10,369 nucleotides of DNA, taken from IMG/VR virus record IMGVR_UViG_2675903352_000018, positions 1-10,369 of that record, one strand, 5' to 3'. Source of the stretch: a virus (Duplodnaviria; Heunggongvirae; Uroviricota; Caudoviricetes). Below are positions 1-10,369 of this stretch, in pieces. The position numbers and the translations under genes are program-made. Below the pieces are notes generated by a model that saw nothing but the letters and a program-made list of their open reading frames with translations, was not told the origin of the DNA and did not search any database. Numbering within the stretch: position 1 is the stretch's first letter; the number at the start of each line of letters is the position of its first letter.

Positions 1-495
1 AGTGGTGATCTCCTTGAAATTGTTAGCACAATCAATTAGATCACATCTCACTATGCCTGTCTTGTTTTCTGGGGATTCCTCAGGGGATTTTCCCTCGTTT
101 TGAGGGATGTCCCTCATTTTAGGGGAACCTCCCTCGTTTTGAGGGATGCACCATTCTGAGATGTTTTTATTTGGTCCAAACATGCCGCCTTGCTGCTTGA
201 TAATATTCATTCTGACGAGTTCTAACTTGGCTTCATTGCACCGTTTGACAGGTAACTTTGTAATCTCGCTAAGTTGAGAATCGGTGATTCTGTCCATTGG
301 TTTATTCCACCCATAGGTTTTACGCAGAATGGCAAGCAGCACTTTAAACTGTCGCTTGGTCAGATCTGCGCCTGAATAAGCCTCAATCAGCATATTTGAT
401 AGTCTGGCGTAACCATCATCGAGATCTGCCACATTACGCTCCTGTTCGGCAAAGTTACCTCTGCCGAAGTTGAGTATTTTTGCTGTATTTGTCAT
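1..495 (-). CDS. O: Replication initiator protein O, N-terminal portion (partial; continues beyond window start)
   Basis: Minus-strand frame from ATG at 495..493, preceded by AGGAG, reads MTNTAKILNFGRGNFAEQERNVADLDDGYARLSNMLIEAYSGADLTKRQFKVLLAILRKTYGWNKPMDRITDSQLSEITKLPVKRCNEAKLELVRMNIIKQQGGMFGPNKNISEWCIPQNEG... and stays open to position 1. I recognise this as lambda O from memory. It is absent from the ORF track because it runs off the window edge. Confidence 0.9.
   Translation of the reverse strand, partial: MTNTAKILNFGRGNFAEQERNVADLDDGYARLSNMLIEAYSGADLTKRQFKVLLAILRKTYGWNKPMDRITDSQLSEITKLPVKRCNEAKLELVRMNIIKQQGGMFGPNKNISEWCIPQNEGGSPKMRDIPQNEGKSPEESPENKTGIVRCDLIDCANNFKEITT
71..146. repeat. 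ori-lambda type iterons (four ~17-bp palindromic repeats) inside the O coding region
   Basis: ggggattcctcagggga (71..87), tccctcgttttgaggga (91..107), tccctcattttagggga (110..126), tccctcgttttgaggga (130..146). Lambda ori lies inside O and consists of O-binding iterons of this TCCCTC..GAGGGA form. Confidence 0.85.
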
Positions 496-527
496 AATGA
501 CTCCTGTGGATTGATCCAGTAATTCCC

Positions 528-824
528 TCAGAATTGCATATCAATTTGCTTAGAGTCCCCGGCGGCCACCGGGGATTTTTTCTTTGTGATTTCATCAAGC
601 GCATACTTAAAAGCCCTGCTAATCGGACTGATGTCTGATGCCATTCCGAAAGCACACAAGACCGAAGCAATAAATCTCCAGTCCGTTCTGCTTATCTTCG
701 ATTCATGACAGCCAATCATCTTTGCCAGACCGCGCTGGGTAAGCGTTGACAGGTTGATGAGTAAATCTGTTTCTGCGCGATCAATTTCTCGCTGTGTTAG
801 CTTGCTGTAACTTGCTTGTGCCAT
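528..824 (-). CDS. cII: CII-family transcriptional activator (lambda CII / P22 C1 analogue)
   Basis: 98-aa ORF between cro and O on the same strand. Same length class and architecture as lambda CII, with a conserved C-terminus (..KKSPVAAGDSKQIDMQF here, ..KKRPAATERSEQIQMEF in lambda). Confidence 0.85.
   Translation of the reverse strand: MAQASYSKLTQREIDRAETDLLINLSTLTQRGLAKMIGCHESKISRTDWRFIASVLCAFGMASDISPISRAFKYALDEITKKKSPVAAGDSKQIDMQF
802..815 (+). promoter_or_regulatory. Candidate P_RE -35 region: CII-binding tetrad repeat TTGC-N6-TTGC
   Basis: ttgctgtaacttgc at 802..815, overlapping the start of the cII coding region and oriented toward cI, as for lambda P_RE. No -10 element was mapped confidently. 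Confidence 0.5.
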
Positions 825-887
825 TTGTTAATTTTCCTATATTGATATATAGCGGCACACCCAGTGGATTTGCCGCTGATGTTTGCT

Positions 888-926
888 CACCCGGTTAGAG
901 GTGAAAGGCCAGAACTGTTAAAGAGC
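888..926 (-). promoter_or_regulatory. nutR site (boxA plus boxB hairpin) between cro and cII
   Basis: On the minus strand: boxA GCTCTTTAA (plus coordinates 918..926), then boxB hairpin TCACCTCTAACCGGGTGA (888..905) with loop CTAACC. The same boxA and loop recur at nutL. A further palindrome agcggca..tgccgct (851..877) lies downstream and may be part of tR1. Confidence 0.6.
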
Positions 927-933
927 AATTTAC

Positions 934-1119
934 TTATGCCGCTTGGCGGTAAGCACTTTCTTGATACTTCAGAGCGCCAGCTGTAACGATTTCCAATCGA
1001 TAGGCGTCTTTCTCTGGGATAACTTCTTTCCACTGAGAGACTGCTGCATCGCTAATGCCTAGTGCTTTAGCAACAGCACGCTGGGTTCCGAAGTGGTCAA
1101 TAACATCTTTTTTGTACAT
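934..1119 (-). CDS. cro: Cro repressor (P22 Cro-like)
   Basis: 61-aa ORF divergent from cI, MYKKDVIDHFGTQRAVAKALGISDAAVSQWKEV... with an HTH motif. Matches P22 Cro as I recall it. Confidence 0.9.
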   Translation of the reverse strand: MYKKDVIDHFGTQRAVAKALGISDAAVSQWKEVIPEKDAYRLEIVTAGALKYQESAYRQAA

Positions 1120-1131
1120 AGACTCGCTCCG

Positions 1132-1199
1132 AAATTAAAGAACACTTAAATTATCCACCAAAGGAATCTTAAGCCAAGTTTATTTAAGATGTCTTAACT
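1132..1199. promoter_or_regulatory. O_R operator region with divergent P_R / P_RM
   Basis: 18-bp P22-type operators built from ATTTAAG/CTTAAAT half-sites: attaaagaacacttaaat (1134..1151) next to cro, atttaagatgtcttaact (1182..1199) abutting the cI ATG, and a CTTAAG-centred site between them. A P_R -10 GATAAT lies on the minus strand at 1150..1155. The last operator directly abuts the cI ATG with no room for a Shine-Dalgarno, which suggests a leaderless cI mRNA as in lambda. Confidence 0.7.
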
Positions 1200-1850
1200 A
1201 TGAATACACAACTGATGGGTGAGCGTATTCGCGCTCGCAGAAAAGAACTCAAGATTAGGCAGGCTGCCCTTGGCAAGATGGTTGGCGTGTCTAATGTTGC
1301 TATTTCCCAATGGGAGCGATCTGAAACTGAGCCCAATGGCGAAAACCTATTGGCCTTAGCCAAGGCTTTGCAGTGCTCCCCTGATTACCTGTTGAAAGGA
1401 GAGGATAGTCTTTCAAACATTGCCTATCACAGCAGGCATGATCCAAGAGGTTCGTATCCTCTAATTAGTTGGGTAAGCGCAGGATGTTGGATGGAAGCTG
1501 TAGAGCCATATCATAGGCGTGCAATAGATAACTGGTACGACACAACGGTAGATTGTTCTGAAGACTCTTTTTGGCTCGACGTTAAAGGTGATTCAATGAC
1601 TGCCCCGGCAGGACTGAGTATTCCTGAAGGGATGATTATTCTCGTCGACCCAGAAGTCGAACCACGTAATGGAAAGCTGGTAGTCGCCAAACTTGAAGGA
1701 GAAAACGAGGCGACATTCAAAAAGTTAGTTATTGATGCCGGTAGAAAATTCCTGAAACCACTCAATCCACAATACCCAATGATTGAAATCAATGGGAACT
1801 GTAAAATCATTGGCGTTGTCGTTGATGCCAAGCTAGCAAACCTTCCTTAA
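1200..1850 (+). CDS. cI: CI-type repressor (HTH N-terminal domain plus LexA/S24-like autocleavage domain); P22 C2-like
   Basis: 216 aa. N-terminus MNTQLMGERIRARRKELKIRQAALGKMVGVSNVAISQWERSETEPNG matches P22 C2 as I recall it. The C-terminal domain has the GDSM serine motif (FWLDVKGDSMTAPAG) and a catalytic-lysine region (ATFKKL). Confidence 0.95.
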   Translation: MNTQLMGERIRARRKELKIRQAALGKMVGVSNVAISQWERSETEPNGENLLALAKALQCSPDYLLKGEDSLSNIAYHSRHDPRGSYPLISWVSAGCWMEAVEPYHRRAIDNWYDTTVDCSEDSFWLDVKGDSMTAPAGLSIPEGMIILVDPEVEPRNGKLVVAKLEGENEATFKKLVIDAGRKFLKPLNPQYPMIEINGNCKIIGVVVDAKLANLP

Positions 1851-1872
1851 GGGGCTTTCGCCCCTTTTTTAT
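1851..1872 (+). terminator. Rho-independent terminator after cI
   Basis: ggggc-tttc-gcccc stem-loop followed by TTTTTT immediately after the cI stop. Confidence 0.7.
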
Positions 1873-1938
1873 TTCCCGTTAAAAATCAAAGACAAACTAA
1901 ATTCGCGCCCATAAAATTAAGTTTTCTTCAAAATGCAC

Positions 1939-1967
1939 TTGACCAAAAATTAAGAGATCTTAAATTT
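1939..1967 (+). promoter_or_regulatory. P_L promoter with overlapping O_L operator
   Basis: -35 TTGACC at 1939..1944, about 17 bp spacer, then an A/T-rich -10 (taaatt). An 18-bp palindromic operator aattaagagatcttaaat (1948..1965) overlaps the spacer. A further operator-like site lies near 1913..1934. Confidence 0.6.
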
Positions 1968-2012
1968 AAGCCGTCAGCAGGAGGCTGGAAGCCAAACGGA
2001 ACAGATTGGCAG

Positions 2013-2052
2013 GCTCTTTAACATCGACGAACTCTCAACCTAACCGTTGAGA
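2013..2052 (+). promoter_or_regulatory. nutL site (boxA plus boxB hairpin)
   Basis: boxA gctctttaa (2013..2021). boxB hairpin tctcaac-ctaacc-gttgaga (2033..2052) has the same CUAACC loop as nutR. Sits between pL and N as in lambda. Confidence 0.6.
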
Positions 2053-2162
2053 CCAGAACTTGAGTGGTTTTGGGGATGGCGCGAATTGCAGCTGCAAGAC
2101 AGCGATCGAGAAGATAAGCACCTCGACGCGTCATGCGCCAAAGCCACTTAAAGGAGACCATC

Positions 2163-2468
2163 ATGGTAACCATTGTCTGGAAAGAATCCAAAGGTACGGC
2201 AAAAAGCCGCTACAAAGCTCGCAGAGCAGAACTTATTGCCGAGCGACGCAGTAATGAAGCACTGGCGCGAAAAATTGCGCTAAAGCTCTCTGGTTGCGTC
2301 AGAGCAGACAAAGCAGCATCACTAGGAAGCCTTTGCTGCAAGAAGAAAGAAGAAGTTGTTCGAAAAAATAGAAGTATTTATTACAAGGATTCAAACCCAT
2401 TAGGAAACAAAATACATGCAGTCCAAAAAATAAAATTGTACAGTAAACTACCGTACGGTGCTTATTGA
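2163..2468 (+). CDS. N: N-family transcription antiterminator (phi21-type arginine-rich motif) with a chimeric C-terminus created by the insertion at 2386
   Basis: RBS aaggag (2151..2156) then ATG at 2163. MVTIVWKESKGTAKSRYKARRAELIAERR contains the phi21 N boxB-binding ARM as I recall it. The track's upstream ATG at 2133 lacks an RBS. The last 27 codons lie inside the AT-rich insert. Confidence 0.85.
   Translation: MVTIVWKESKGTAKSRYKARRAELIAERRSNEALARKIALKLSGCVRADKAASLGSLCCKKKEEVVRKNRSIYYKDSNPLGNKIHAVQKIKLYSKLPYGAY
2376..2385. repeat. Left copy of 10-bp direct repeat ATTTATTACA flanking the insert in N
   Basis: Identical 10-mer at 2376..2385 and 2848..2857. Deleting one copy plus the intervening 462 bp restores an uninterrupted N reading frame. 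Confidence 0.8.
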
Positions 2469-2470
2469 GT

Positions 2471-2809
2471 ATGCTTATGGTGAAAAAGACTATTTATGTT
2501 AATCCTGACCGCGGACAAAACAGAAAAGTATCTGATAGAGGTCTTACATCTCGAGACAGGAGGAGAATAGCGAGATGGGAAAAGAGGATAGCATATGCAT
2601 TAAAAAACGGTGTAACACCTGGATTTAATGCTATAGATGACGGTCCTGAATATAAGATTAATGAAGACCCAATGGACAAAGTTGACAAAGCATTAGCAAC
2701 ACCATTTCCTCGCGATGTCGAAAAAATTGAAGATGAAAAATATGAGGATGTAATGCACAGAGTTGTTAATCACGCTCACCAACGAAATCCAAATAAAAAA
2801 TGGTCATAG
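2471..2809 (+). CDS. Hypothetical protein encoded inside the AT-rich insert (moron); no recognisable family
   Basis: ATG at 2471 lies 2 nt after the N stop (tgagtATG), so it is translationally coupled. 112 aa: basic N-terminal half (KVSDRGLTSRDRRRIARWEKR), acidic C-terminal half (EDPMDKVDK...DVEKIEDEKYED). Followed directly by an intrinsic terminator. The alternative start at ATG 2477 is not excluded. Confidence 0.6.
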   Translation: MLMVKKTIYVNPDRGQNRKVSDRGLTSRDRRRIARWEKRIAYALKNGVTPGFNAIDDGPEYKINEDPMDKVDKALATPFPRDVEKIEDEKYEDVMHRVVNHAHQRNPNKKWS

Positions 2810-2829
2810 CCCACTTCGGTGGGTTTTTT
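2810..2829 (+). terminator. Rho-independent terminator at the 3' end of the insert
   Basis: cccac-ttcg-gtggg stem-loop followed by TTTTTT, one nt after the stop of the 2471..2809 ORF. Confidence 0.7.
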
Positions 2830-2847
2830 ATTGGCTGAACTAACCGA

Positions 2848-2934
2848 ATTTATTACAGCAAGCCACGCAGTGAAATGGGTGTGACTTGTGTTGGTCGCCA
2901 GAAAATGAAATTAGGCAGCAAACCACTTATTTGA
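2848..2934 (+). pseudogene. N: Displaced original 3' end of N (right direct-repeat copy plus last ~27 codons)
   Basis: Reads ..IYYSKPRSEMGVTCVGRQKMKLGSKPLI then stop, closely resembling the lambda N C-terminus (..YSKPGERGITCSGRQKIKGKSIPLI). It is in frame with N 2163..2385 once the insert is removed, and has no start codon of its own. Confidence 0.75.
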
Positions 2935-2942
2935 GGTGAGAT

Positions 2943-3413
2943 ATGACAAAATCATGGAGCGTACCTTTTCCTGAATCAGAAACTGAACATGATGGAATGC
3001 CTGTTTTCTGGAGATTCCAGGCGACAGTTGAAGAAGATGGGATAAAAATATTCGCACTTCAATATATAGCTTTTCATCAGACAGAGCATTATGCATGGTT
3101 GGTTCCTGCGCATTGGATTGTTAATTTTAAACCAGCACCAAATCAGTGGTTACAGGAATGGAAACAAAGGAGAAATAGATATGCAATTAAGAAAGTAGCA
3201 AAAAATGCAGAAAGATCTTTTGCATTCCCAACGAAGAAACTTGCCATTGAGAGTTTATTGCGCCGGAAGAAATACCATTTAATGAGAATCAAACAAGATT
3301 TGGCTGTTGTATCAACTCTTGTTGATGGGATGAAGAATATTGATACATCAACACCAGATATTGAATATAACTTTGGGCACAACCAAGAAACAGAAAATTG
3401 GGTATTTTATTAG
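2943..3413 (+). CDS. Hypothetical protein at the N-proximal accessory position (where lambda has ral/sieB)
   Basis: 156-aa ORF with RBS gaggtga 5 nt upstream of the ATG, starting 9 nt after the original N stop. Soluble-looking, Trp-rich N-terminus, basic central segment (KQRRNRYAIKKVAKN..RRKKYHLMRIK). No family recognised. Confidence 0.7.
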   Translation: MTKSWSVPFPESETEHDGMPVFWRFQATVEEDGIKIFALQYIAFHQTEHYAWLVPAHWIVNFKPAPNQWLQEWKQRRNRYAIKKVAKNAERSFAFPTKKLAIESLLRRKKYHLMRIKQDLAVVSTLVDGMKNIDTSTPDIEYNFGHNQETENWVFY

Positions 3414-3427
3414 TACGAGTAAGCACT

Positions 3428-3455
3428 GTGTATTCATTCCAACGAGTGAATACAC
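3428..3455. repeat. Perfect 9-bp inverted repeat with 10-nt spacer in the intergenic region
   Basis: gtgtattca-ttccaacgag-tgaatacac. Could be an RNA hairpin or a protein-binding palindrome. Confidence 0.4.
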
Positions 3456-3517
3456 GGAGCAATGTCGCTCGTAACTAAACAGGAGCCGACTTGTTCTGAT
3501 TATTGGAAATCTTCTTT

Positions 3518-3545
3518 GCCCTCTAATGTGAGGGCGATTTTTTTC
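3518..3545 (+). terminator. Rho-independent terminator upstream of ea10
   Basis: gccctc-taatgt-gagggc stem-loop followed by gatttttttctg. Confidence 0.65.
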
Positions 3546-3562
3546 TGTGAGGATATGAACAG

Positions 3563-3931
3563 ATGTCAAACATCAAAAAATACATCATTGATTACGACTG
3601 GAAAGCATCAATAGAAATTGAAATCGACCATGACTTAATGACAGAGGAAAAACTTCACCAGATTAATAATTTCTGGTCAGACTCTGAATACCGACTCAAT
3701 AAACACGGCTCTGTATTAAATGCTGTATTAATCATGCTGGCGCAACATGCTCTGCTTATAGCAATTTCAAGCGACTTAAATGCATATGGTGTTGTGTGTG
3801 AGTTCGACTGGAATGATGGAAATGGTCAGGAAGGATGGCCTCCAATGGATGGTAGCGAAGGAATAAGAATTACCGATATCGATACATCAGGAATATTTGA
3901 TCCAGATGATATGACTATCAAAGCCGCCTGA
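3563..3931 (+). CDS. ea10: Ea10-like protein (lambda ea10 homologue)
   Basis: 122 aa, MSNIKKYIIDYDWKASIEIEIDHDLMTEEKLHQINNFWSDSEYRL... Matches lambda Ea10 in length and sequence as I recall it, and occupies the lambda position just upstream of cIII. Confidence 0.8.
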   Translation: MSNIKKYIIDYDWKASIEIEIDHDLMTEEKLHQINNFWSDSEYRLNKHGSVLNAVLIMLAQHALLIAISSDLNAYGVVCEFDWNDGNGQEGWPPMDGSEGIRITDIDTSGIFDPDDMTIKAA

Positions 3932-4003
3932 GCGCGGCGTTACCGCATACCAATTACGCTTCACTCGAGGCGTTTTTCGTTATGTATAAATAAGGAGCAC
4001 ACC

Positions 4004-4168
4004 ATGCAATATGCCATTGCAGGGTGGCCTGTTGCTGGCTGCCCTTCCAAATCTTTACTTGAACGAATTACCCGTAAATTACGTGACGGATGGAAACGCC
4101 TTATCGACATACTTAATCAGCCAGGAGTCCCGAAAAATGGATCAAACAATTATGGCTATCCAGACTAA
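4004..4168 (+). CDS. cIII: CIII protein (FtsH inhibitor that stabilises CII)
   Basis: RBS taaggag (3991..3997). Translation [54 protein letters not shown] (54 aa) is nearly identical to lambda CIII as recalled. Below the ORF-track length cutoff. Confidence 0.9.
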   Translation: MQYAIAGWPVAGCPSKSLLERITRKLRDGWKRLIDILNQPGVPKNGSNNYGYPD

Positions 4169-4301
4169 ATTCACTATCGCCACTTTTATTGGCGATGAAA
4201 AGATGTTTCGTGAGGCCGTCGACGCTTATAAAAAATGGATATTAATACAGAAACTGAGATCAAGCAAAAGCATTCACTACCCCCCTTTCCTGTTTTCCTA
4301 A
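4137..4301 (+). CDS. kil: Kil (host cell-division inhibitor), extended relative to lambda
   Basis: ATG at 4137 overlaps the cIII 3' end by 32 nt, as in lambda. [47 protein letters not shown]... The track ORF 4011..4301 is the same frame with a spurious upstream extension. Here the frame runs to 54 codons, against 47 for lambda Kil as recalled. Confidence 0.8.
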
Positions 4302-4355
4302 TCAGCCTGGCATTTCGCGGGCGATATTTTCACAGCCATTTTCAGGAGTTCAGCC

Positions 4356-4652
4356 ATGAACGCTTATTACATTCAGGATCGTCTTGAGGCTCAGAGCTGG
4401 GCGCGTCACTACCAGCAGATCGCCCGTGAAGAGAAAGAGGCAGAACTGGCAGACGACATGGAAAAAGGCCTGCCCCAGCACCTGTTTGAATCGCTATGCA
4501 TCGATCATTTGCAACGCCACGGGGCCAGCAAAAAAGCCATTACCCGTGCGTTTGATGACGATGTTGAGTTTCAGGAACGCATGGCAGAACACATCCGGTA
4601 CATGGTTGAAACCATTGCTCACCACCAGGTTGATATTGATTCAGAGGTATAA
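4356..4652 (+). CDS. gam: Gam (RecBCD inhibitor), short GamS form
   Basis: 98 aa, [60 protein letters not shown]... essentially identical to lambda GamS. RBS aggag upstream. Confidence 0.95.
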
Positions 4653-4657
4653 AACGG

Positions 4658-5443
4658 ATGAGTACAGCACTCGCAACGCTGGCTGGGAAGCTGGCTGAAC
4701 GTGTCGGCATGGATTCTGTCGACCCACAGGAACTGATCACCACTCTTCGCCAGACGGCATTTAAAGGTGATGCCAGCGATGCGCAGTTCATCGCATTGCT
4801 GATCGTCGCCAACCAGTACGGCCTTAATCCGTGGACGAAAGAAATTTACGCCTTCCCTGATAAGCAGAACGGCATCGTTCCGGTGGTGGGCGTTGATGGC
4901 TGGTCCCGCATCATCAACGAAAACCAGCAGTTTGATGGCATGGACTTTGAGCAGGACAATGAATCCTGCACATGCCGGATTTACCGCAAGGACCGTAATC
5001 ATCCGATCTGCGTTACCGAGTGGATGGATGAATGCCGCCGCGAACCATTCAAAACCCGCGAAGGCAGAGAAATCACGGGGCCGTGGCAGTCGCATCCCAA
5101 ACGGATGTTACGTCATAAAGCCATGATTCAGTGTGCCCGTCTCGCCTTCGGATTTGCTGGTATCTATGACAAGGATGAAGCCGAGCGCATTGTCGAAAAT
5201 ACCGCATACACTGCAGAACGTCAGCCGGAACGCGACATCACTCCGGTTAACGATGAAACCATGCAGGAAATTAACACTCTGCTGATCGCCCTGGATAAAA
5301 CATGGGATGACGACTTATTGCCGCTCTGTTCCCAGATATTTCGCCGCGACATTCGTGCATCGTCAGAACTGACACAGGCCGAAGCAGTAAAAGCTCTTGG
5401 ATTCCTGAAACAAAAAGCCACTGAACAGAAGGTGGCAGCATGA
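4658..5443 (+). CDS. bet: Bet (Red-beta single-strand annealing recombinase)
   Basis: 261 aa, [68 protein letters not shown]... matches lambda Beta in sequence and length. Confidence 0.97.
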
Positions 5444-6117
5444 CACCGGACATTATCCTGCAGCGTACTGGGATCGACGTGAGAGCTGTCGAACAGGGAG
5501 ATGATGCGTGGCACAAATTACGGCTCGGCGTCATCACAGCTTCAGAAATTCACAACGTAATAGCAAAACCCCGATCAGGAAAGAAGTGGCCTGACATGAA
5601 AATGTCCTACTTCCACACCCTGCTGGCTGAGGTTTGCACCGGTGTGGCTCCGGAAGTTAACGCTAAGGCTCTGGCCTGGGGAAAACAGTACGAGAACGAC
5701 GCCAGAACCCTCTTTGAGTTCACTTCCGGCGTGAATGTTACTGAATCCCCGATCATCTATCGCGACGAAAGTATGCGCACCGCCTGCTCTCCCGATGGTT
5801 TATGCAGTGACGGCAACGGCCTTGAGCTGAAATGCCCGTTTACCTCCCGGGATTTCATGAAGTTCCGGCTCGGTGGTTTCGAGGCCATAAAATCGGCTTA
5901 CATGGCCCAGGTGCAGTACAGCATGTGGGTGACACGAAAAGATGCCTGGTACTTTGCCAACTATGACCCGCGCATGAAGCGTGAAGGCCTGCATTATGTC
6001 GTGATTGAGCGGAATGAAAAGTACATGGCGAGTTTTGACGAGATGGTGCCGGAGTTCATCGAAAAAATGGACGAGGCACTGGCTGAAATTGGTTTTGTAT
6101 ATGGGGAGCAATGGTAA
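5440..6117 (+). CDS. exo: Exo (Red-alpha 5'-3' dsDNA exonuclease)
   Basis: 225 aa, [36 protein letters not shown]... matches lambda exonuclease. Start overlaps the bet stop (ATGA). Confidence 0.97.
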
Positions 6118-6299
6118 TGAAGCATCCTCACGATAATATCCGGGTAGGCACGATCACTTTCGTCTACTCCGTTACAAAGCGAGGCTGGGTATTTCCCGGC
6201 CTTTCTGTTATCCGAAATCCACTGAAAGCACAGCGGCTGGCTGAGGAGATAAATAATAAACGGGAGGCGATATGCACAAAGCATCTCCTGTTAAGTTAA
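6111..6299 (+). CDS. orf60a: Lambda orf60a-like small protein
   Basis: (MV)[49 protein letters not shown]... matches lambda orf60a as recalled. The true start may be ATG 6117, overlapping the exo stop. Confidence 0.8.
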
Positions 6300-6463
6300 G
6301 AACGAGTATTGAGATGGCACATAGCCTTGCTCAAATTGGAGTCAGGTTTGTGCCAATACCAGTAGAAACAGACGAAGAATTTCATACGTTAGCCACATCT
6401 CTTTCACAAAAGCTGGAAATGATGGCGGCGAAAGCAGAAGCAAACGAGAGGGACCCGGCATGA
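6272..6463 (+). CDS. orf63: Lambda orf63-like small protein
   Basis: 63 aa, [51 protein letters not shown]... matches lambda orf63 as recalled. Confidence 0.8.
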   Translation: MHKASPVKLRTSIEMAHSLAQIGVRFVPIPVETDEEFHTLATSLSQKLEMMAAKAEANERDPA

Positions 6464-6543
6464 CAACCACTGAATGCATTTTTCTGGCAGCAGGCTTCAT
6501 ATTCTGTGTGCTTATGCTTGCCGACATGGGACTTGTTCAATGA
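6460..6543 (+). CDS. Candidate small hydrophobic peptide (27 aa)
   Basis: ATG overlaps the orf63 stop (ATGA) and the stop overlaps the orf61 start. MTTTECIFLAAGFIFCVLMLADMGLVQ is predominantly hydrophobic and long enough for one transmembrane helix. Too short for the ORF track. Confidence 0.35.
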   Translation: MTTTECIFLAAGFIFCVLMLADMGLVQ

Positions 6544-6755
6544 CACCTCAGCAGGAAAACGCACTTCGCAGCATTGCCCGTCAGGCTAATTCTGAAATCA
6601 AAAAAGCCAGACAGCAGTTTCCGGATAAAAACGTCGATGACATTTGCCGTAGCGTACTGAAGAAGCACCGCGAAACAGTAACGCTGATGGGATTCACACC
6701 GACTCATTTAAGCCTGGCGATCGGCATGTTAAACGGCGTCTTTAAGGAGCGATGA
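6540..6755 (+). CDS. orf61: Lambda orf61-like small protein
   Basis: MTPQQENALRSIARQANSEIKKARQQFPDKNVDDICRSVLKKHRETVTLMGFTPTHLSLAIGMLNGVFKER matches lambda orf61 as recalled. The track extends the frame upstream to 6474; start chosen at ATG 6540. Confidence 0.75.
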   Translation: MTPQQENALRSIARQANSEIKKARQQFPDKNVDDICRSVLKKHRETVTLMGFTPTHLSLAIGMLNGVFKER

Positions 6756-6757
6756 AC

Positions 6758-6847
6758 ATGAAAAGCAAAATCATCAGGGAGCTACAGGCTCCTTTTTTAT
6801 TGTTCGCATTCACCCTCAAGCGTATTAACCAACAATTCAGGGATTAA
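6758..6847 (+). CDS. Candidate small ORF (29 aa)
   Basis: RBS aaggag (6744..6749) 8 nt before ATG 6758. MKSKIIRELQAPFLLFAFTLKRINQQFRD fills the gap between orf61 and the zinc-finger gene. Confidence 0.3.
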   Translation: MKSKIIRELQAPFLLFAFTLKRINQQFRD

Positions 6848-6853
6848 TGGAAG

Positions 6854-7075
6854 ATGGCAGACATCATTGATTCAGCATCAGAAATTGAAGAATTACAGCG
6901 CAACACAGCAATAAAAATGCACCGCCTGAACCACCAGGCTATATCTGCCACTCATTGTTGTGAGTGTGGCGATCCGATAGATGAACTAAGACGCCTGGCT
7001 GTTCAGGGTTGTCGGACTTGTGCAAGTTGCCAAGAGGATCTGGAGCTTATCAGTAAACAGAGAGGTTCGAAGTGA
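6854..7075 (+). CDS. TraR/DksA-family C4 zinc-finger protein
   Basis: 73 aa with the CxxC-N17-CxxC signature (CECGDPIDELRRLAVQGCRTCASCQ) typical of the TraR/DksA family. Lambda has a TraR-like Orf73 in this region, as far as I recall. Confidence 0.8.
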   Translation: MADIIDSASEIEELQRNTAIKMHRLNHQAISATHCCECGDPIDELRRLAVQGCRTCASCQEDLELISKQRGSK

Positions 7076-7677
7076 GCGAAATTAACTCTCAGGCACTGCG
7101 TGAAGCGGCAGAGCAAGCAATGCATGACGACTGGGGATTTGATGCGGACCTTTTCCATGAGCTGGTAACACCATCGATTGTGCTGGCACTGCTGGATGAA
7201 CGGGAAAGAAACCAGCAATACATCAAACGCCGCGACCAGGAGAACGAGGATATTGCGCTAACGGTAGGGAAACTGCGTGTTGAGCTTGAGGAGACAAAAT
7301 CAAAACTCAACGAGCAGCGTGAATATTACGAAGGTGTTATCTCGGATGGGAGTAAGCGTATTGCTGAACTGGAGAAAAGCGAAGAGCAACTCATTAACGA
7401 GCGTGACCATGCTGAGTCTGCTTTAGATGATATGTACTTTGCAGCAACCGGGGATAGGCCGGAGTGGAGTAACTGGTTCGGCTTTTCTGATGCCGTTGAT
7501 GCCGTGGTTGACAGAATTGCTGATTTAGAAGCCAAACAGCCATCGCCAGTAGTACCGGAAGAAAAACCAATGCCTAACCCTCTTAGCATGTACGCGGTTG
7601 ATGCTGTTGCAGCTATTGCAGAGGTGAGAGGCTGGAACGCCTGCCGTGCAGCCATGCTTAAGGGAGATAAATCATGA
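7072..7677 (+). CDS. ea22: Ea22-like protein with a divergent C-terminal half
   Basis: GTG start overlapping the upstream stop (GTGA), RBS agaggt. The N-terminal ~100 aa (MSEINSQALREAAEQAMHDDWGFDADLFHELVTPSIVLALLDERERNQQYIKRRDQENEDIALTVGKLRVELEE...) match lambda Ea22 as recalled. The C-terminal half, from about 7400, does not. Confidence 0.75.
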   Translation: MSEINSQALREAAEQAMHDDWGFDADLFHELVTPSIVLALLDERERNQQYIKRRDQENEDIALTVGKLRVELEETKSKLNEQREYYEGVISDGSKRIAELEKSEEQLINERDHAESALDDMYFAATGDRPEWSNWFGFSDAVDAVVDRIADLEAKQPSPVVPEEKPMPNPLSMYAVDAVAAIAEVRGWNACRAAMLKGDKS

Positions 7678-8036
7678 TTAATCGAACCAAACTGGAGCAC
7701 ATCCTCGAGTATGCCAGGCAGCAGAGGCGCTTTGGCCAGCTTTGTAAAATTCTGCCAGGAGATATGGTTGAAATCGTGGAGATTGCCATGCGTAAGACTG
7801 GCAACTCTCCGGTAACTCCGGATAGTTGGATAAGCTGTAGTGAGCGAATGCCGAACGATAAACAGTATGTTTGGTGTTGGGGTAAGTCTTACGGCTGGAC
7901 TGAGTGCAATACCTTCGAAGGGTATTACGATTGGTCGAGAAACAAATGGTGGGCAGTTACTGACGATGGGGAAGAACCGGCATCAAAAGTAACCCACTGG
8001 ATGCCGCTGCCAGAACCGCCGCAGGAGGCAAAATGA
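7674..8036 (+). CDS. DUF551-domain phage protein
   Basis: 120 aa. C-terminal region WISCSERMPNDKQYVWCW...THWMPLPEPP resembles the DUF551 signature. Start overlaps the ea22 stop (ATGA), RBS agggag. Confidence 0.7.
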   Translation: MINRTKLEHILEYARQQRRFGQLCKILPGDMVEIVEIAMRKTGNSPVTPDSWISCSERMPNDKQYVWCWGKSYGWTECNTFEGYYDWSRNKWWAVTDDGEEPASKVTHWMPLPEPPQEAK

Positions 8037-8293
8037 TGGATGTAAAAGAGAAGGTTTTGCAGGTGATGCGTTCTCGGGCTGCCCTGCAAGATAAAGCTCT
8101 CGGCGGGGAATATCCATTCACGATAGCAACCTGGAATCTGCGGTTGGCAATGGAGAAGGAATTTCCTGATGAAGAATGGCGTTCGGCAGATTTGCGCAAA
8201 ATTCTTATGGAGATGGCTAAAGACGGAACAGTATCTAAAGATAACCATGCCAGCCGGATTGGTCAGGCGATATGGAGACTGGAGGTGAGGTAA
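8033..8293 (+). CDS. Hypothetical protein (86 aa)
   Basis: RBS aggagg (8023..8028). Start overlaps the upstream stop and the stop overlaps the downstream start (TAATG). No family recognised. Confidence 0.65.
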   Translation: MMDVKEKVLQVMRSRAALQDKALGGEYPFTIATWNLRLAMEKEFPDEEWRSADLRKILMEMAKDGTVSKDNHASRIGQAIWRLEVR

Positions 8294-8577
8294 TGGCTAA
8301 CCTGCAACTTGCCGTCAAAGGTGAATACTTCGATGCCATGATTCGTGGAGAGAAAACGGAAGAGTATCGCCTGTGTAATGACTACTGGAATAAGCGAATC
8401 ATGCTCCGGGAATATGACCGCCTGATTATCACAAAGGGATATCCGAAGCGCGACGATTCCAGCCGTAGAATTGATGTTACGTATGACGGATATGAAATCA
8501 AGACAATCACACATTCGCACTTCGGTGATAAACCGGTAAAGGTGTTCGCGATAAAGGTGAATATCAGCAATGAATAA
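8293..8577 (+). CDS. Hypothetical protein, possibly ASCH/PUA-like (DUF3850-like)
   Basis: RBS ggaggtgagg (8281..8290) then ATG 8293. MANLQLAVKGEYFDAMIRGEKTEEYRLCNDYWNKRI...HFGDKPVKVFAIKV resembles the ASCH-like KxEYFxAIxxGxKTxExR pattern; the fold assignment is tentative. The track start at 8272 lies inside the upstream gene. Confidence 0.6.
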   Translation: MANLQLAVKGEYFDAMIRGEKTEEYRLCNDYWNKRIMLREYDRLIITKGYPKRDDSSRRIDVTYDGYEIKTITHSHFGDKPVKVFAIKVNISNE

Positions 8578-8611
8578 CAATCCTCGCACTCGCGGGGATT
8601 TCTTTTATCTG

Positions 8612-8636
8612 AACTCGCTACGGCGAGTTTTGTTTT
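8612..8636 (+). terminator. Intrinsic terminator-like hairpin within the operon
   Basis: aactcgc-tacg-gcgagtt stem-loop followed by ttgtttt. Confidence 0.45.
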
Positions 8637-8649
8637 ATGGAGACAAGAA

Positions 8650-8994
8650 ATGTCAGATTTGGCTATGAAGGTTTTGAAATGGCAATCGACTGGCGATGTT
8701 GGCATTAGTAGCGCAACTCTTGCCTCAATCGCATGTGGACTGAAAAAGAATATCTATGGTCATCACTTCGGCGCTCCACATGACGCAGCATACTTCCGGC
8801 GATGCGTTGCACTTGTTGAGCAGATTCCAGAAATCAGAGATTCATTCGACAAGGTTGCAAAGCGCGTTCCGGCATTCAAAGGCATCCTCAACGAATGGGA
8901 TTCCCTCGTTGCTCTGTTGAAGTCTGAAATGAAGATACACGGAAACAAAGCACCAGAGACTTACAGAAGAATCAGCGAGCTACGCAAGGACTAA
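8650..8994 (+). CDS. Hypothetical protein (114 aa)
   Basis: RBS ggag (8637..8640), ATG 8650. No family recognised. Same strand and operon as the flanking genes. Confidence 0.65.
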   Translation: MSDLAMKVLKWQSTGDVGISSATLASIACGLKKNIYGHHFGAPHDAAYFRRCVALVEQIPEIRDSFDKVAKRVPAFKGILNEWDSLVALLKSEMKIHGNKAPETYRRISELRKD

Positions 8995-9052
8995 CCACAG
9001 CCTCACACTCGATGAGGCCTGTTCATTTCTCAAGATATCCAGACCTACCATT

Positions 9053-9072
9053 GCCGCATCAATGCGGCTTTT
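9053..9072 (+). terminator. Terminator-like hairpin upstream of xis
   Basis: gccgca-tcaa-tgcggc stem-loop followed by TTTT. A second hairpin gcctca-cactcga-tgaggc lies at 9000..9018. Confidence 0.4.
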
Positions 9073-9099
9073 CTTGCGTGTAATTGCGGAGACTTTGCG

Positions 9100-9318
9100 A
9101 TGTACTTGACACTTCAGGAGTGGAACGCACGCCAGCGGCGCCCAAGGAGCCTTGAAACAGTTCGTCGATGGGTACGCGAGTGCAGGATATTCCCTCCTCC
9201 GGTTAAGGATGGAAGAGAGTATCTGTTCCACGAATCAGCGGTAAAGGTTGACTTAAATCGACCAGTAACAGGTAGCCTTTTGAAGAGGATCAAAAATGGG
9301 AAGAAGGCGAAGTTATGA
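9100..9318 (+). CDS. xis: Excisionase Xis
   Basis: 72 aa, MYLTLQEWNARQRRPRSLETVRRWVRECRIFPPPVKDGREYLFHESAVKVDLNRPVTG... essentially identical to lambda Xis. Overlaps the int start as in lambda. Confidence 0.92.
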   Translation: MYLTLQEWNARQRRPRSLETVRRWVRECRIFPPPVKDGREYLFHESAVKVDLNRPVTGSLLKRIKNGKKAKL

Positions 9319-10369
9319 GCGCCGGGATTTACCCCCTAACCTTTATATAAGAAACAATGGATATTACTGCTACAGGGACCCAAGGACGGGTAAAGAGTTC
9401 GGATTAGGCAGAGACAGAAGGATAGCAGTTTCAGAGGCTATTCAGGCCAATATTGAGTTGCTATCCGAGAACAGGCGTGAGTCACTGATAGACAGAATTA
9501 AAGGCGCTGACGCAATCACTCTTCATGTGTGGCTTGACCGATATGAAAGAATCCTCACCGAAAGGGGGATCAGGCCGAAAACTCTACTCGACTACGCCAG
9601 TAAAATCAGGGCAATCCGAAGAAAATTGCCGGACAAACCGCTCACTGACATATCAACGAAAGAAGTGGCAGCAATGCTAAACACCTACGTAGCAGAAGGT
9701 AAAGCAGCTTCCGCAAAATTAATCAGGTCAACCCTTGTTGACGTTTTTCGTGAAGCAATAGCCGAGGGGCATGTGGCAACGAATCCGGTAACAGCAACCC
9801 GTACAGCAAAGTCAGAAGTAAGGCGCTCAAGGCTGACAGCTAATGAGTATGTCGAGATTTACCATGCAGCCGAACCTCTCCCTATCTGGCTAAGGCTGGC
9901 GATGGATTTGGCTGTCGTTACAGGGCAGAGAGTGGGCGATTTGTGCAGAATAAAATGGTCAGACATAAACGACAACCATCTTCACATTGAACAGAGTAAA
10001 ACAGGGGCTAAGCTCGCCATTCCGCTAACGCTAACGATTGACGCGCTCAATATCTCATTGGCTGATACACTACAGAAATGCAGGGAGGCCAGCGGCAGTG
10101 AAACTATAATCGCATCAAAGCATCACGATCCGCTTTCCCCGAAAACAGTATCGAAGTATTTTACAAAGGCGAGAAATGCATCTGGACTCTCATTTGATGG
10201 AGACCCGCCAACATTTCATGAACTGCGTAGCCTGTCAGCGAGGCTATACCGGAATCAGATTGGCGATAAGTTTGCTCAACGTCTTCTCGGACATAAATCA
10301 GATTCAATGGCTGCGCGGTATAGGGACAGCCGAGGGAGAGAATGGGACAAAATTGAAATCAACAAATGA
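9296..10369 (+). CDS. int: Tyrosine integrase Int (lambda Int family)
   Basis: 357 aa. N-terminus MGRRRSYERRDLPPNLYIRNNGYYCYRDPRTGKEFGLGRDRR matches the lambda Int arm-binding domain. The C-terminal catalytic region has the HELRSL...LLGH...Y motifs. Stop codon is the last triplet of the window, so attP lies beyond it. Confidence 0.95.
   Translation: MGRRRSYERRDLPPNLYIRNNGYYCYRDPRTGKEFGLGRDRRIAVSEAIQANIELLSENRRESLIDRIKGADAITLHVWLDRYERILTERGIRPKTLLDYASKIRAIRRKLPDKPLTDISTKEVAAMLNTYVAEGKAASAKLIRSTLVDVFREAIAEGHVATNPVTATRTAKSEVRRSRLTANEYVEIYHAAEPLPIWLRLAMDLAVVTGQRVGDLCRIKWSDINDNHLHIEQSKTGAKLAIPLTLTIDALNISLADTLQKCREASGSETIIASKHHDPLSPKTVSKYFTKARNASGLSFDGDPPTFHELRSLSARLYRNQIGDKFAQRLLGHKSDSMAARYRDSRGREWDKIEINK

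Follow-up and report, generated by a model that had tools for sequence, protein, structure and literature searches.

The DNA sequence analyzed here (the window, i.e. the whole stretch of 10,369 nucleotides (nt), positions 1 to 10,369 of IMG/VR record IMGVR_UViG_2675903352_000018) contains a lambdoid immunity and early region. The accessory block that extends from within its ea22 homologue to the end of ORF114 is very probably a mosaic accessory segment at the promoter-distal end of the leftward early (pL) operon of an Escherichia albertii prophage, a hybrid of phages lambda and HK022. Judged from its sequence, it is put together from exchangeable modules, whole genes or parts of genes, that meet at conserved junctions. 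The distinguished features are listed below; protein lengths are given in amino acids (aa).

7072-7677, plus strand: ea22 homologue, 201 aa, with a GTG start overlapping the stop codon of the TraR/DksA-like orf73 gene
7374-7677, plus strand: replaced C-terminal half of Ea22, composed of a middle module (7374-7544) and a tail module (7545-7677)
7674-8036, plus strand: DUF551 protein, 120 aa; ATGA overlap with the ea22 stop codon
8033-8293, plus strand: 86-aa protein, PHROG 2814 (E 3e-51), named 'eaa protein' by NCBI; ATGA overlap with the DUF551 stop codon
8293-8577, plus strand: ASCH-fold protein, 94 aa, with the octapeptide G19-E-K21-T-E-E24-Y-R26 (GKER type); TAATG overlap with the stop codon of the 86-aa gene
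8579-8609, plus strand: first terminator-like hairpin and T-run (tL4; scan match 8579-8600, 9 pairs), corresponding to the annotated tL4
8611-8636, plus strand: second terminator-like hairpin and T-run (scan match 8611-8630, 8 pairs)
8650-8994, plus strand: 114-aa protein, equivalent to ORF114 of phage 434 and gp32 of HK022 (HK022_32); a separate cistron between tL4 and t'I
9000-9018, plus strand: further hairpin (scan match)
9053-9075, plus strand: terminator-like hairpin and T-run upstream of xis (scan match 9053-9068), corresponding to t'-I of phage 434; 3' boundary of the ORF114 cassette

Positions 3674-10369 of the window are 100% identical to a draft contig of E. albertii (BBVQ01000062.1, assembly GCA_001514805.1). 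The prophage arrangement with this exact block was found in at least six assemblies of the E. albertii type, i.e. the source and at least five more, and the sister prophages in these assemblies adjoin an RND efflux pair (a membrane-fusion protein and ACR_tran).

The mosaic structure was mapped by BLAST comparison of the window with five annotated relatives. Similarity to phage lambda (96.9% DNA identity) spans positions 3967-7373, breaks off within ea22 and is found again only at 8574-8652, in non-coding DNA corresponding (93.7% identity) to the lambda stretch that follows ea8.5. The block genes occupy the position, between ea22 and xis, where lambda has ea8.5 and orf55. The window shares with the lambda exo-xis region its operon position and the cassette orf60a/DUF1317, orf63/DUF1382, orf61, orf73/TraR-like and ea22, but it lacks ea8.5 and orf55, and the C-terminal half of its Ea22 is built from two short modules.

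Prophages of enterohaemorrhagic E. coli (EHEC) O26, O103 and O111, located next to yfaA (e.g. NZ_CP031922), are close kin of the window prophage. They are 99.25% identical to it at positions 82-7852, from cII to codon 60 of the DUF551 gene, diverge from it at 7853-8523, where a single 30-bp match was detected (7996-8025), and are 96% identical to it from 8524, i.e. from the end of the ASCH gene through int. The divergent interval of these prophages encodes another DUF551 C-terminal domain, and a DUF4222 gene takes the place that the 86-aa and ASCH genes have in the window. An O26-type prophage covers at least 80% of the window in 112 complete E. coli genomes. In the O26:H11 prophage (locus L005, 9755-9810, corresponding to window positions 8524-8577), the final ~54 nt of the ASCH gene persist as non-coding DNA past DUF4222, left over from a cassette replacement.

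Three segments match HK022: 7545-7853 (the end of gene 36 and the start of gene 35), 8294-8643 (gene 34 and tL4) and 8622-10369 (gene 32, xis and int). HK022 has no 86-aa gene, and an extra orf55-type gene separates its last two segments. The ASCH gene (HK022_34), the tL4 double hairpin, ORF114, t'I and the HK022-type xis and int genes are 94-97% identical to those of HK022 and 434 (AF069308, X51962, M60848). Unlike the window, both of these phages have the orf55-type gene between the hairpins and ORF114, and HK022 keeps gp36 as a separate protein. The mosaic is joined at 7373 and 7545 in ea22, at 7853 in the DUF551 gene, at 8524 towards the end of ASCH, and inside the hairpin element.

The interval 7380-9000 was covered to at least 80% in one place in none of the 5,426 complete E. 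coli genomes, and pieces of it were present in 3,752. The lack of the block in these genomes follows from the fact that the window represents an E. albertii prophage. Each of the 86-aa, ASCH and ORF114 genes is held by 5-27% of the complete E. coli genomes (272, 1,465 and 915 genomes, respectively, at a coverage of at least 80%). The best E. coli match to the block (70%) is a P22-like prophage integrated at thrW, which carries Ea22-like, DUF551, 86-aa, ASCH, orf55 and ORF114 genes in this order, together with recombination and integration genes unrelated to those of the window. On sequence grounds, the block genes are frequent, and some of them co-occur, but the gene content of the locus varies. 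An initial inspection of the nucleotide sequence without database searches (the sequence-only reading) had described a variable accessory block, a view that would have had to be abandoned if all of its genes were widespread at an invariable locus. Genome comparison revealed a variable locus instead, with divergent content in the O26 prophage, HK022 and lambda, and comparison with the relatives also supports the general outline of that reading: a swapped C-terminal half of Ea22, DUF551, small genes including an ASCH-like one, and a terminator that splits them. The locus itself is of minor importance, being another permutation, this time from an E. albertii prophage, of the known accessory-gene shuffling in the terminal part of lambdoid pL operons. 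The comparison provides a base-resolution map, in which exchange is seen at sub-gene joints (in ea22 and the DUF551 gene) and at a conserved 72-nt double-terminator element that more than 300 phage records contain.

All block genes lie on the pL strand, and their five open reading frames (ORFs) are intact and have good ribosome-binding sites. Four tightly coupled genes had been postulated downstream of ea22. Three of them are indeed chained to ea22 and to each other by the stop/start overlaps (ATGA, ATGA and TAATG), but the ORF114 gene is a separate cistron behind a 72-nt spacer from the ASCH gene and has its own GGAGA ribosome-binding site.

This organization bears on the possibility that the block genes are lysogenic-conversion 'morons', which would be transcribed from promoters of their own in the repressed prophage, to the advantage of the lysogen (fitness or superinfection exclusion). 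Like a moron, ORF114 lies between terminator-like hairpins, and E. coli lacking the DUF551 protein YfdS is sensitive to H2O2 (cited in PMC4776307 and PMC10834534). However, a moron is distinguished by its own promoter as well as a downstream terminator, and a scan of both strands of 6800-9400, based on the consensus only, yielded no sigma-70-like promoters versus 3.2 expected. Since no promoter-like site is present in this interval, a role in lysogen fitness via expression in the prophage state is unlikely. The orientation of the genes along pL, their overlap coupling to ea22 and their G+C content (0.45-0.50), which matches that of the flanking phage genes, also argue against this explanation, as does the occurrence of relatives of the 86-aa and ORF114 genes in phages whose retrieved stretch has no annotated integrase. 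We therefore consider it quite improbable.

The hairpin at 8612-8636 reported in the sequence-only reading is real, but it does not split the block alone, as it is the second of two in tandem. RNA folding of 8570-8652 gave a free energy of -27.4 kcal/mol (z = -4.3 versus shuffled sequences), and both hairpins were present in the minimum free energy and centroid folds. The first one is the 'tL4 terminator' of the HK022 int-xis record X51962 (271-299, locus L002), with one loop base different, and it is homologous to 't-L4' of the phage 434 record M60848. It is near-invariant in lambda, 434, HK022, 720R6 and the O26 prophage, and the stem changes seen in 434 keep the pairing. The second hairpin runs straight into the GGAGA ribosome-binding site (8639-8643) of the ORF114 gene. 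Downstream of this gene, the t'-I hairpin is placed by record M60848 25-48 nt upstream of xis, and the distance is equal in the window (xis start at 9100). No Rfam family matched the hairpin region at the gathering threshold, and at a relaxed threshold the matches were at chance level (E 0.09). Nothing on tL4 was found in the open-access literature. The 72-nt double-hairpin element (8578-8649) is present in 316 phage records, mostly at an identity of at least 95%, and is almost never annotated. Its carriers include lambda, DE3, CUS-3, P22-like Salmonella phages, Stx phages and ES18, and the genes upstream of it are unrelated.

In lambda, 434, HK022 and 720R6 the orf55-type gene is flanked by two copies of the junction TTTTATGGAGA...AAATG, and it is exactly the DNA between two such copies that is missing from the window and the O26 prophage, as if the gene had been lost or gained by recombination between the junction repeats. 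The junction is composed of a T-run, GGAGA, ~6 nt and ATG (window 8622-8649; locus L001, 3317-3338 and 3513-3537; locus L002, 301-345 and 505-537).

By analogy with lambda, the block would be transcribed from pL as a set of delayed-early genes once an N-type antiterminator allows readthrough of the pL terminators, and its products would be made upon infection or induction and not in the repressed prophage. We infer that the hairpin at 8579-8609 may terminate unmodified RNA polymerase and that N may permit its readthrough. Together, tL4 and t'I could then act as added barriers keeping unmodified polymerase out of ORF114, xis and int. The block proteins would be non-essential and would modulate the host or the choice between lysis and lysogeny, and the DUF551 protein, the 86-aa protein and ORF114 in particular may be dispensable early proteins that modulate the host or its defence.

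The first protein affected by the mosaicism is Ea22. The Pfam family Ead_Ea22 (PF13935) matches its residues 2-101 (104.5 bits versus a cut-off of 27; E 9e-30). Residues 1-104 are identical to lambda Ea22 at 98 of 104 positions (94%), and there is no alignment past residue 104. As read previously, the protein is therefore lambda-like for about 100 residues and unrelated thereafter, and the DNA break at 7373 agrees with this. It is a three-part mosaic, in which the lambda-type part (residues 1-104, N-terminal segment and coiled coil) is followed by modules at residues ~102-163 and 152-201. The two latter modules assort independently and occur separately in other phages, inside ORFs annotated as DUF551, EaA or Ea22; the PHROG matches likewise fall in separate stretches along the protein. 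HK022 DNA identity (97%) begins with the tail module, at 7545, and over its last 48 aa the protein shares 92% identity with the C-terminal end of HK022 gp36 (HK022_36), the product of a separate gene in that phage.

A search against PDB sequences gave no match to Ea22 at E≤1, though the structure of the lambda C-terminal domain has been deposited (PMC10834534). Together with the end of the alignment at residue 104, this indicates that the dimeric alpha/beta C-terminal domain of full-length lambda-type Ea22, solved by nuclear magnetic resonance, is absent. A PHROG label of residues 87-148, 'host RecBCD nuclease inhibitor', was dropped because HK022 Abc2 gave no alignment. In published work, Ea22 consists of an N-terminal segment, a coiled coil and an exchangeable C-terminal domain; the scaffold is tetrameric, with a pro-lysogenic effect that is preserved, and no EHEC-associated Ea22 carries the lambda C-terminal domain (PMC10834534, PMC7093339). 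The mosaic ea22 genes of Stx phages form three variants (V1-V3), of which one carries a DUF551 fusion, and the gene content beyond ea22 is diverse (PMC10834534, PMC7093339). The C-terminal replacement and the diversity beyond ea22 are thus correctly described here but already published, and their novelty is low. The Ea22 of phage 1717 (V3 in PMC10834534) has an extra N-terminal insert, whereas that of the window has uninterrupted lambda-type residues 1-104. The window protein would keep the lambda-type N-terminal and coiled-coil scaffold and display a different C-terminal head.

The presence of a DUF551 protein directly after Ea22 was confirmed by Pfam (PF04448; residues 51-117, full profile length, 64.1 bits versus a cut-off of 22, E 2e-17). 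Its gene is itself a mosaic, with a recombination joint at 7853 (approximately codon 60): the O26 prophage and HK022 matches both stop at 7852/7853, and the 720R6 match spans 7798-8028. DUF551 is a portable domain. Searches of the protein against PDB sequences, with the single sequence and with a profile, gave chance-level matches.

For the 86-aa gene, 44 homologue clusters were found but, in line with its earlier description, it has no Pfam, NCBIfam or PADLOC match, and a PDB profile search found nothing below E 0.7. The pattern of its sequence might suggest a winged helix, which is a guess. The gene also occurs in Stx2a phages, in P1-like phages and plasmids and in other phages of ~46-48 kb. 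Of its 302 places in E. coli, 125 are on plasmids (P1/SJ46-like phage-plasmids), in contrast to just 4 of 1,246 for ORF114.

This distribution is of interest for a different explanation, in which the block is an anti-defence island whose DUF551, 86-aa, ASCH and ORF114 proteins would each neutralise host or prophage immunity, the mosaicism reflecting an arms race. This view is compatible with the operon model. The operon is shared with gam, and in relatives it adjoins anti-RecBCD genes; the 86-aa gene adjoins a gene for a 'Lar-like restriction alleviation protein' in phage Louie, and its presence in P1-like and other phages and on plasmids points in the same direction. DUF551 also occurs in fusion with a dATP/dGTP pyrophosphohydrolase that reportedly inhibits restriction by the host (PMC10834534), and ORF114-like genes are found in early small-gene arrays of diverse phages with no fixed partner. 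However, none of the five block proteins matches a known anti-defence protein, and the published data on Ea22 favour the lysis-lysogeny balance over defence. Neither NCBIfam nor PADLOC returned a match for these proteins (Ea22, DUF551, 86-aa, ASCH and ORF114), although PADLOC models defence systems and not anti-defence proteins. An anti-defence role of the whole block thus seems less likely than not, though for the proteins without an assigned function it is a serious alternative; we favour the pL accessory segment described above.

The next gene encodes the ASCH-fold protein. Its longest ORF begins at ATG 8272, but the true start is ATG 8293, as indicated by several observations: the TAATG overlap with the 86-aa gene; the presence of GGAGGTGAGG upstream of ATG 8293; the PHROG 625 match, which begins at residue 8 of the long form; the HK022 and 720R6 genes, which begin with GTG at the matching codon; and the gene callers, which in six assemblies predicted a protein of 94 aa. 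The earlier description of this gene as ASCH/PUA-like is supported as to fold class, and the length is 94 aa instead of the 101 aa of the longest ORF.

The assignment is supported by the predicted fold and by a motif. In the model, the protein is a small PUA-like beta-barrel whose strands beta1 and beta2 are linked by helix alpha1. The GxKxxExR octapeptide, defined for the ASCH superfamily and located in the alpha1-beta2 region (PMC6803910), is present in the corresponding region. Among 42 homologues G19, K21, E24 and R26 are invariant, and E20, E23 and Y25 are conserved in at least 90%. The Pfam ASCH profile (PF04266) stays below its gathering score (14.4 bits versus 21.2) and matches with its N-terminal 23 positions only; 24 of the 42 homologues also give sub-threshold matches to it (best E 0.029). 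Matches to PDB sequences, with the single sequence and with a profile, were at chance level. The predicted barrel and octapeptide resemble those of E. coli YqfB, T. thermophilus TTHA0113 and human EOLA1 and TRIP4, and the numbering of Lys21, Glu24 and Arg26 is the same as in EOLA1. Unlike the known ASCH proteins, the phage protein is at the small end of the size range (94 aa) and is encoded in a phage early operon.

In a recent study all 19 ASCH proteins assayed, of the GKTR and GKER types, stripped N4-acetylcytidine (ac4C) from tRNA, with the Lys and Glu/Thr residues being essential (preprint 10.64898/2026.02.27.708502). We infer that the phage protein may have an RNA-targeting function. More specifically, we tentatively propose, as a possibility, that it binds or deacetylates N4-acetylcytidine, in host tRNA or as the free nucleoside, via the Lys21/Glu24 octapeptide. 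The predicted structure and the motif now lend support to the phage 'ASCH' annotation, which makes a concrete test of ac4C/tRNA deacetylation possible.

ORF114, located behind the double hairpin, is the least ordinary part of the block and the one lead worth following. Its full length matches PHROG 1229 (E 4e-50, positions 1-113 of 116). An exhaustive profile search distinguished 2,781 representative clusters at E≤1e-3, of which 609 reached E≤1e-10, so the family comprises at least 2,781 clusters at 50% identity; a word-indexed search alone had pointed to 63 clusters and a limited enterobacterial family. In an alignment of 59 members (mean identity 30%), S20, P43, D45, R51, C52 and W83 are invariant, within the motifs W..G..G.SS, P.DP.DF.RC and WDEL. 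No member matches Pfam, and the family profile matches no PDB sequence. The AlphaFold model is very confident (pLDDT 95.8) and contains seven helices. When it was compared with viral models by Foldseek, uncharacterised proteins only were found, with no match to a solved fold. Relatives of ORF114 occur in 277 phage records, from phages of Escherichia, Salmonella, Vibrio, Klebsiella, Mannheimia, Aeromonas and Arthrobacter.

It is a speculative and on balance unlikely proposal that ORF114, as the founding unnamed member of a very large family in phages of Proteobacteria and Actinobacteria, with a fold absent from solved structures and catalytic-looking residues (GxSS, PxDPxDFxRC and W), is a new enzyme or an early inhibitor of a host system. 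Nevertheless, a protein present in the original sequence record of phage 434 that turns out to belong to a large unannotated family, and for which a confident model is available, is a reasonable structural and functional target.

Analysis of 70 IMG/VR loci revealed no conserved partner of ORF114. The most frequent neighbour is DUF5131 (7 of 70 loci), followed by DUF4222 and TraR/DksA-like genes (4 each), and the recurrent neighbours (DUF5131, DUF4222, TraR/DksA-like and NinX-like) are the usual lambdoid accessory genes. The short metagenomic contexts of the relatives were uninformative. In a single case, a tRNA nucleotidyltransferase (PolyA_pol and HD; locus L007, 37-1713) carries an ORF114-like domain fused to its C-terminus; the other fusion partners belong to no Pfam or annotated PHROG family. 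In one further case, the gene downstream of a family member weakly matches peptidyl-tRNA hydrolase (PTH2; locus L008, 5348-5776). The fusion and the PTH2-like neighbour are a hint of tRNA biology, and the fusion, together with the adjoining ASCH gene, would fit a tRNA-directed role of ORF114. A protein of ~248 aa with an N-terminal GRKTQTRR, similar to the GKTR-type ASCH octapeptide, is encoded within 3.5 kb of ORF114-like genes in 6 of the 70 loci (e.g. locus L035, 2165-2911). Pfam detects no ASCH domain in it, so a linkage between ASCH and ORF114 through this neighbour is not claimed. In Mannheimia phage vB_MhS_1152AP2 (locus L011, 2944-3409), a homologue with 32% identity lies upstream of a small gene and an integrase gene and is bracketed by annotated rho-independent terminators, i.e. 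in the same cassette layout as in the window.

The copy of ORF114 in the window keeps all six invariant residues but differs at a near-invariant position: codon 48 (8789-8791) is TAC (Tyr) instead of GAC (Asp), which is found in at least 90% of the 59 members and in all five sister prophages. The Tyr48 allele is on record from the source assembly only, and it may reflect an impaired protein or a sequencing error.

The last observation is relevant to a further explanation, by which the block is decaying filler, i.e. recombination debris now functionless in a resident prophage. Besides D48Y, which is limited to this strain, the many truncated or chimeric fragments of ORF114 and the 86-aa gene in databases and the non-coding 3' vestige of the ASCH gene in the O26 prophage are consistent with decay. 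However, the five ORFs are intact and well provided with ribosome-binding sites, and the ratio of nonsynonymous to synonymous substitution rates (dN/dS) indicates purifying selection (0.08-0.27 across ASCH and ORF114; 0.08-0.21 for ORF114). Moreover, the families are conserved far beyond Escherichia, and identical blocks are present in several assemblies. Decay is thus highly improbable as an explanation of the block.

Several points also weigh against the interpretation of the block as a functional pL accessory segment with an ac4C-directed ASCH protein. The proposed readthrough of tL4 and its N dependence rest on lambda biology, and the probable N gene (2133-2468, the next ORF past the repressor gene) matches N_peptide below the threshold (18.1 bits versus a cut-off of 27.9). 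Three of the five block proteins are without a functional lead, and ORF114, given its substitution at Asp48, may be impaired. The 19 ASCH proteins assayed include no phage protein, and in some members of the superfamily the ac4C activity is possibly an evolutionary remnant (preprint 10.64898/2026.02.27.708502).

Outside the block, cII and cro are located on the minus strand of the window. The plus strand carries genes for a LexA/CI-type repressor and the probable N, low-G+C genes of unknown kind, and cIII, kil, gam, bet and exo, followed by DUF1317, DUF1382, orf61-like and TraR/DksA-like genes, ea22, the variable block and the HK022-type xis and int genes. The N-terminus encoded by the ORF at 2133-2468 is arginine-rich, which we take to be a likeness to N of phage 21. 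The lambda cIII RNA thermometer (Rfam RF01804, 85.5 bits) was identified at 3991-4049, upstream of cIII. The region 2400-3900 has a low G+C content (0.36-0.41 versus 0.45-0.54 elsewhere) and contains ORFs of 114 and 156 aa without a Pfam match and a gene for a 122-aa DUF2528 protein. As the sequence-only reading had called the block described here the second, this region is presumably the first variable one that it implied.

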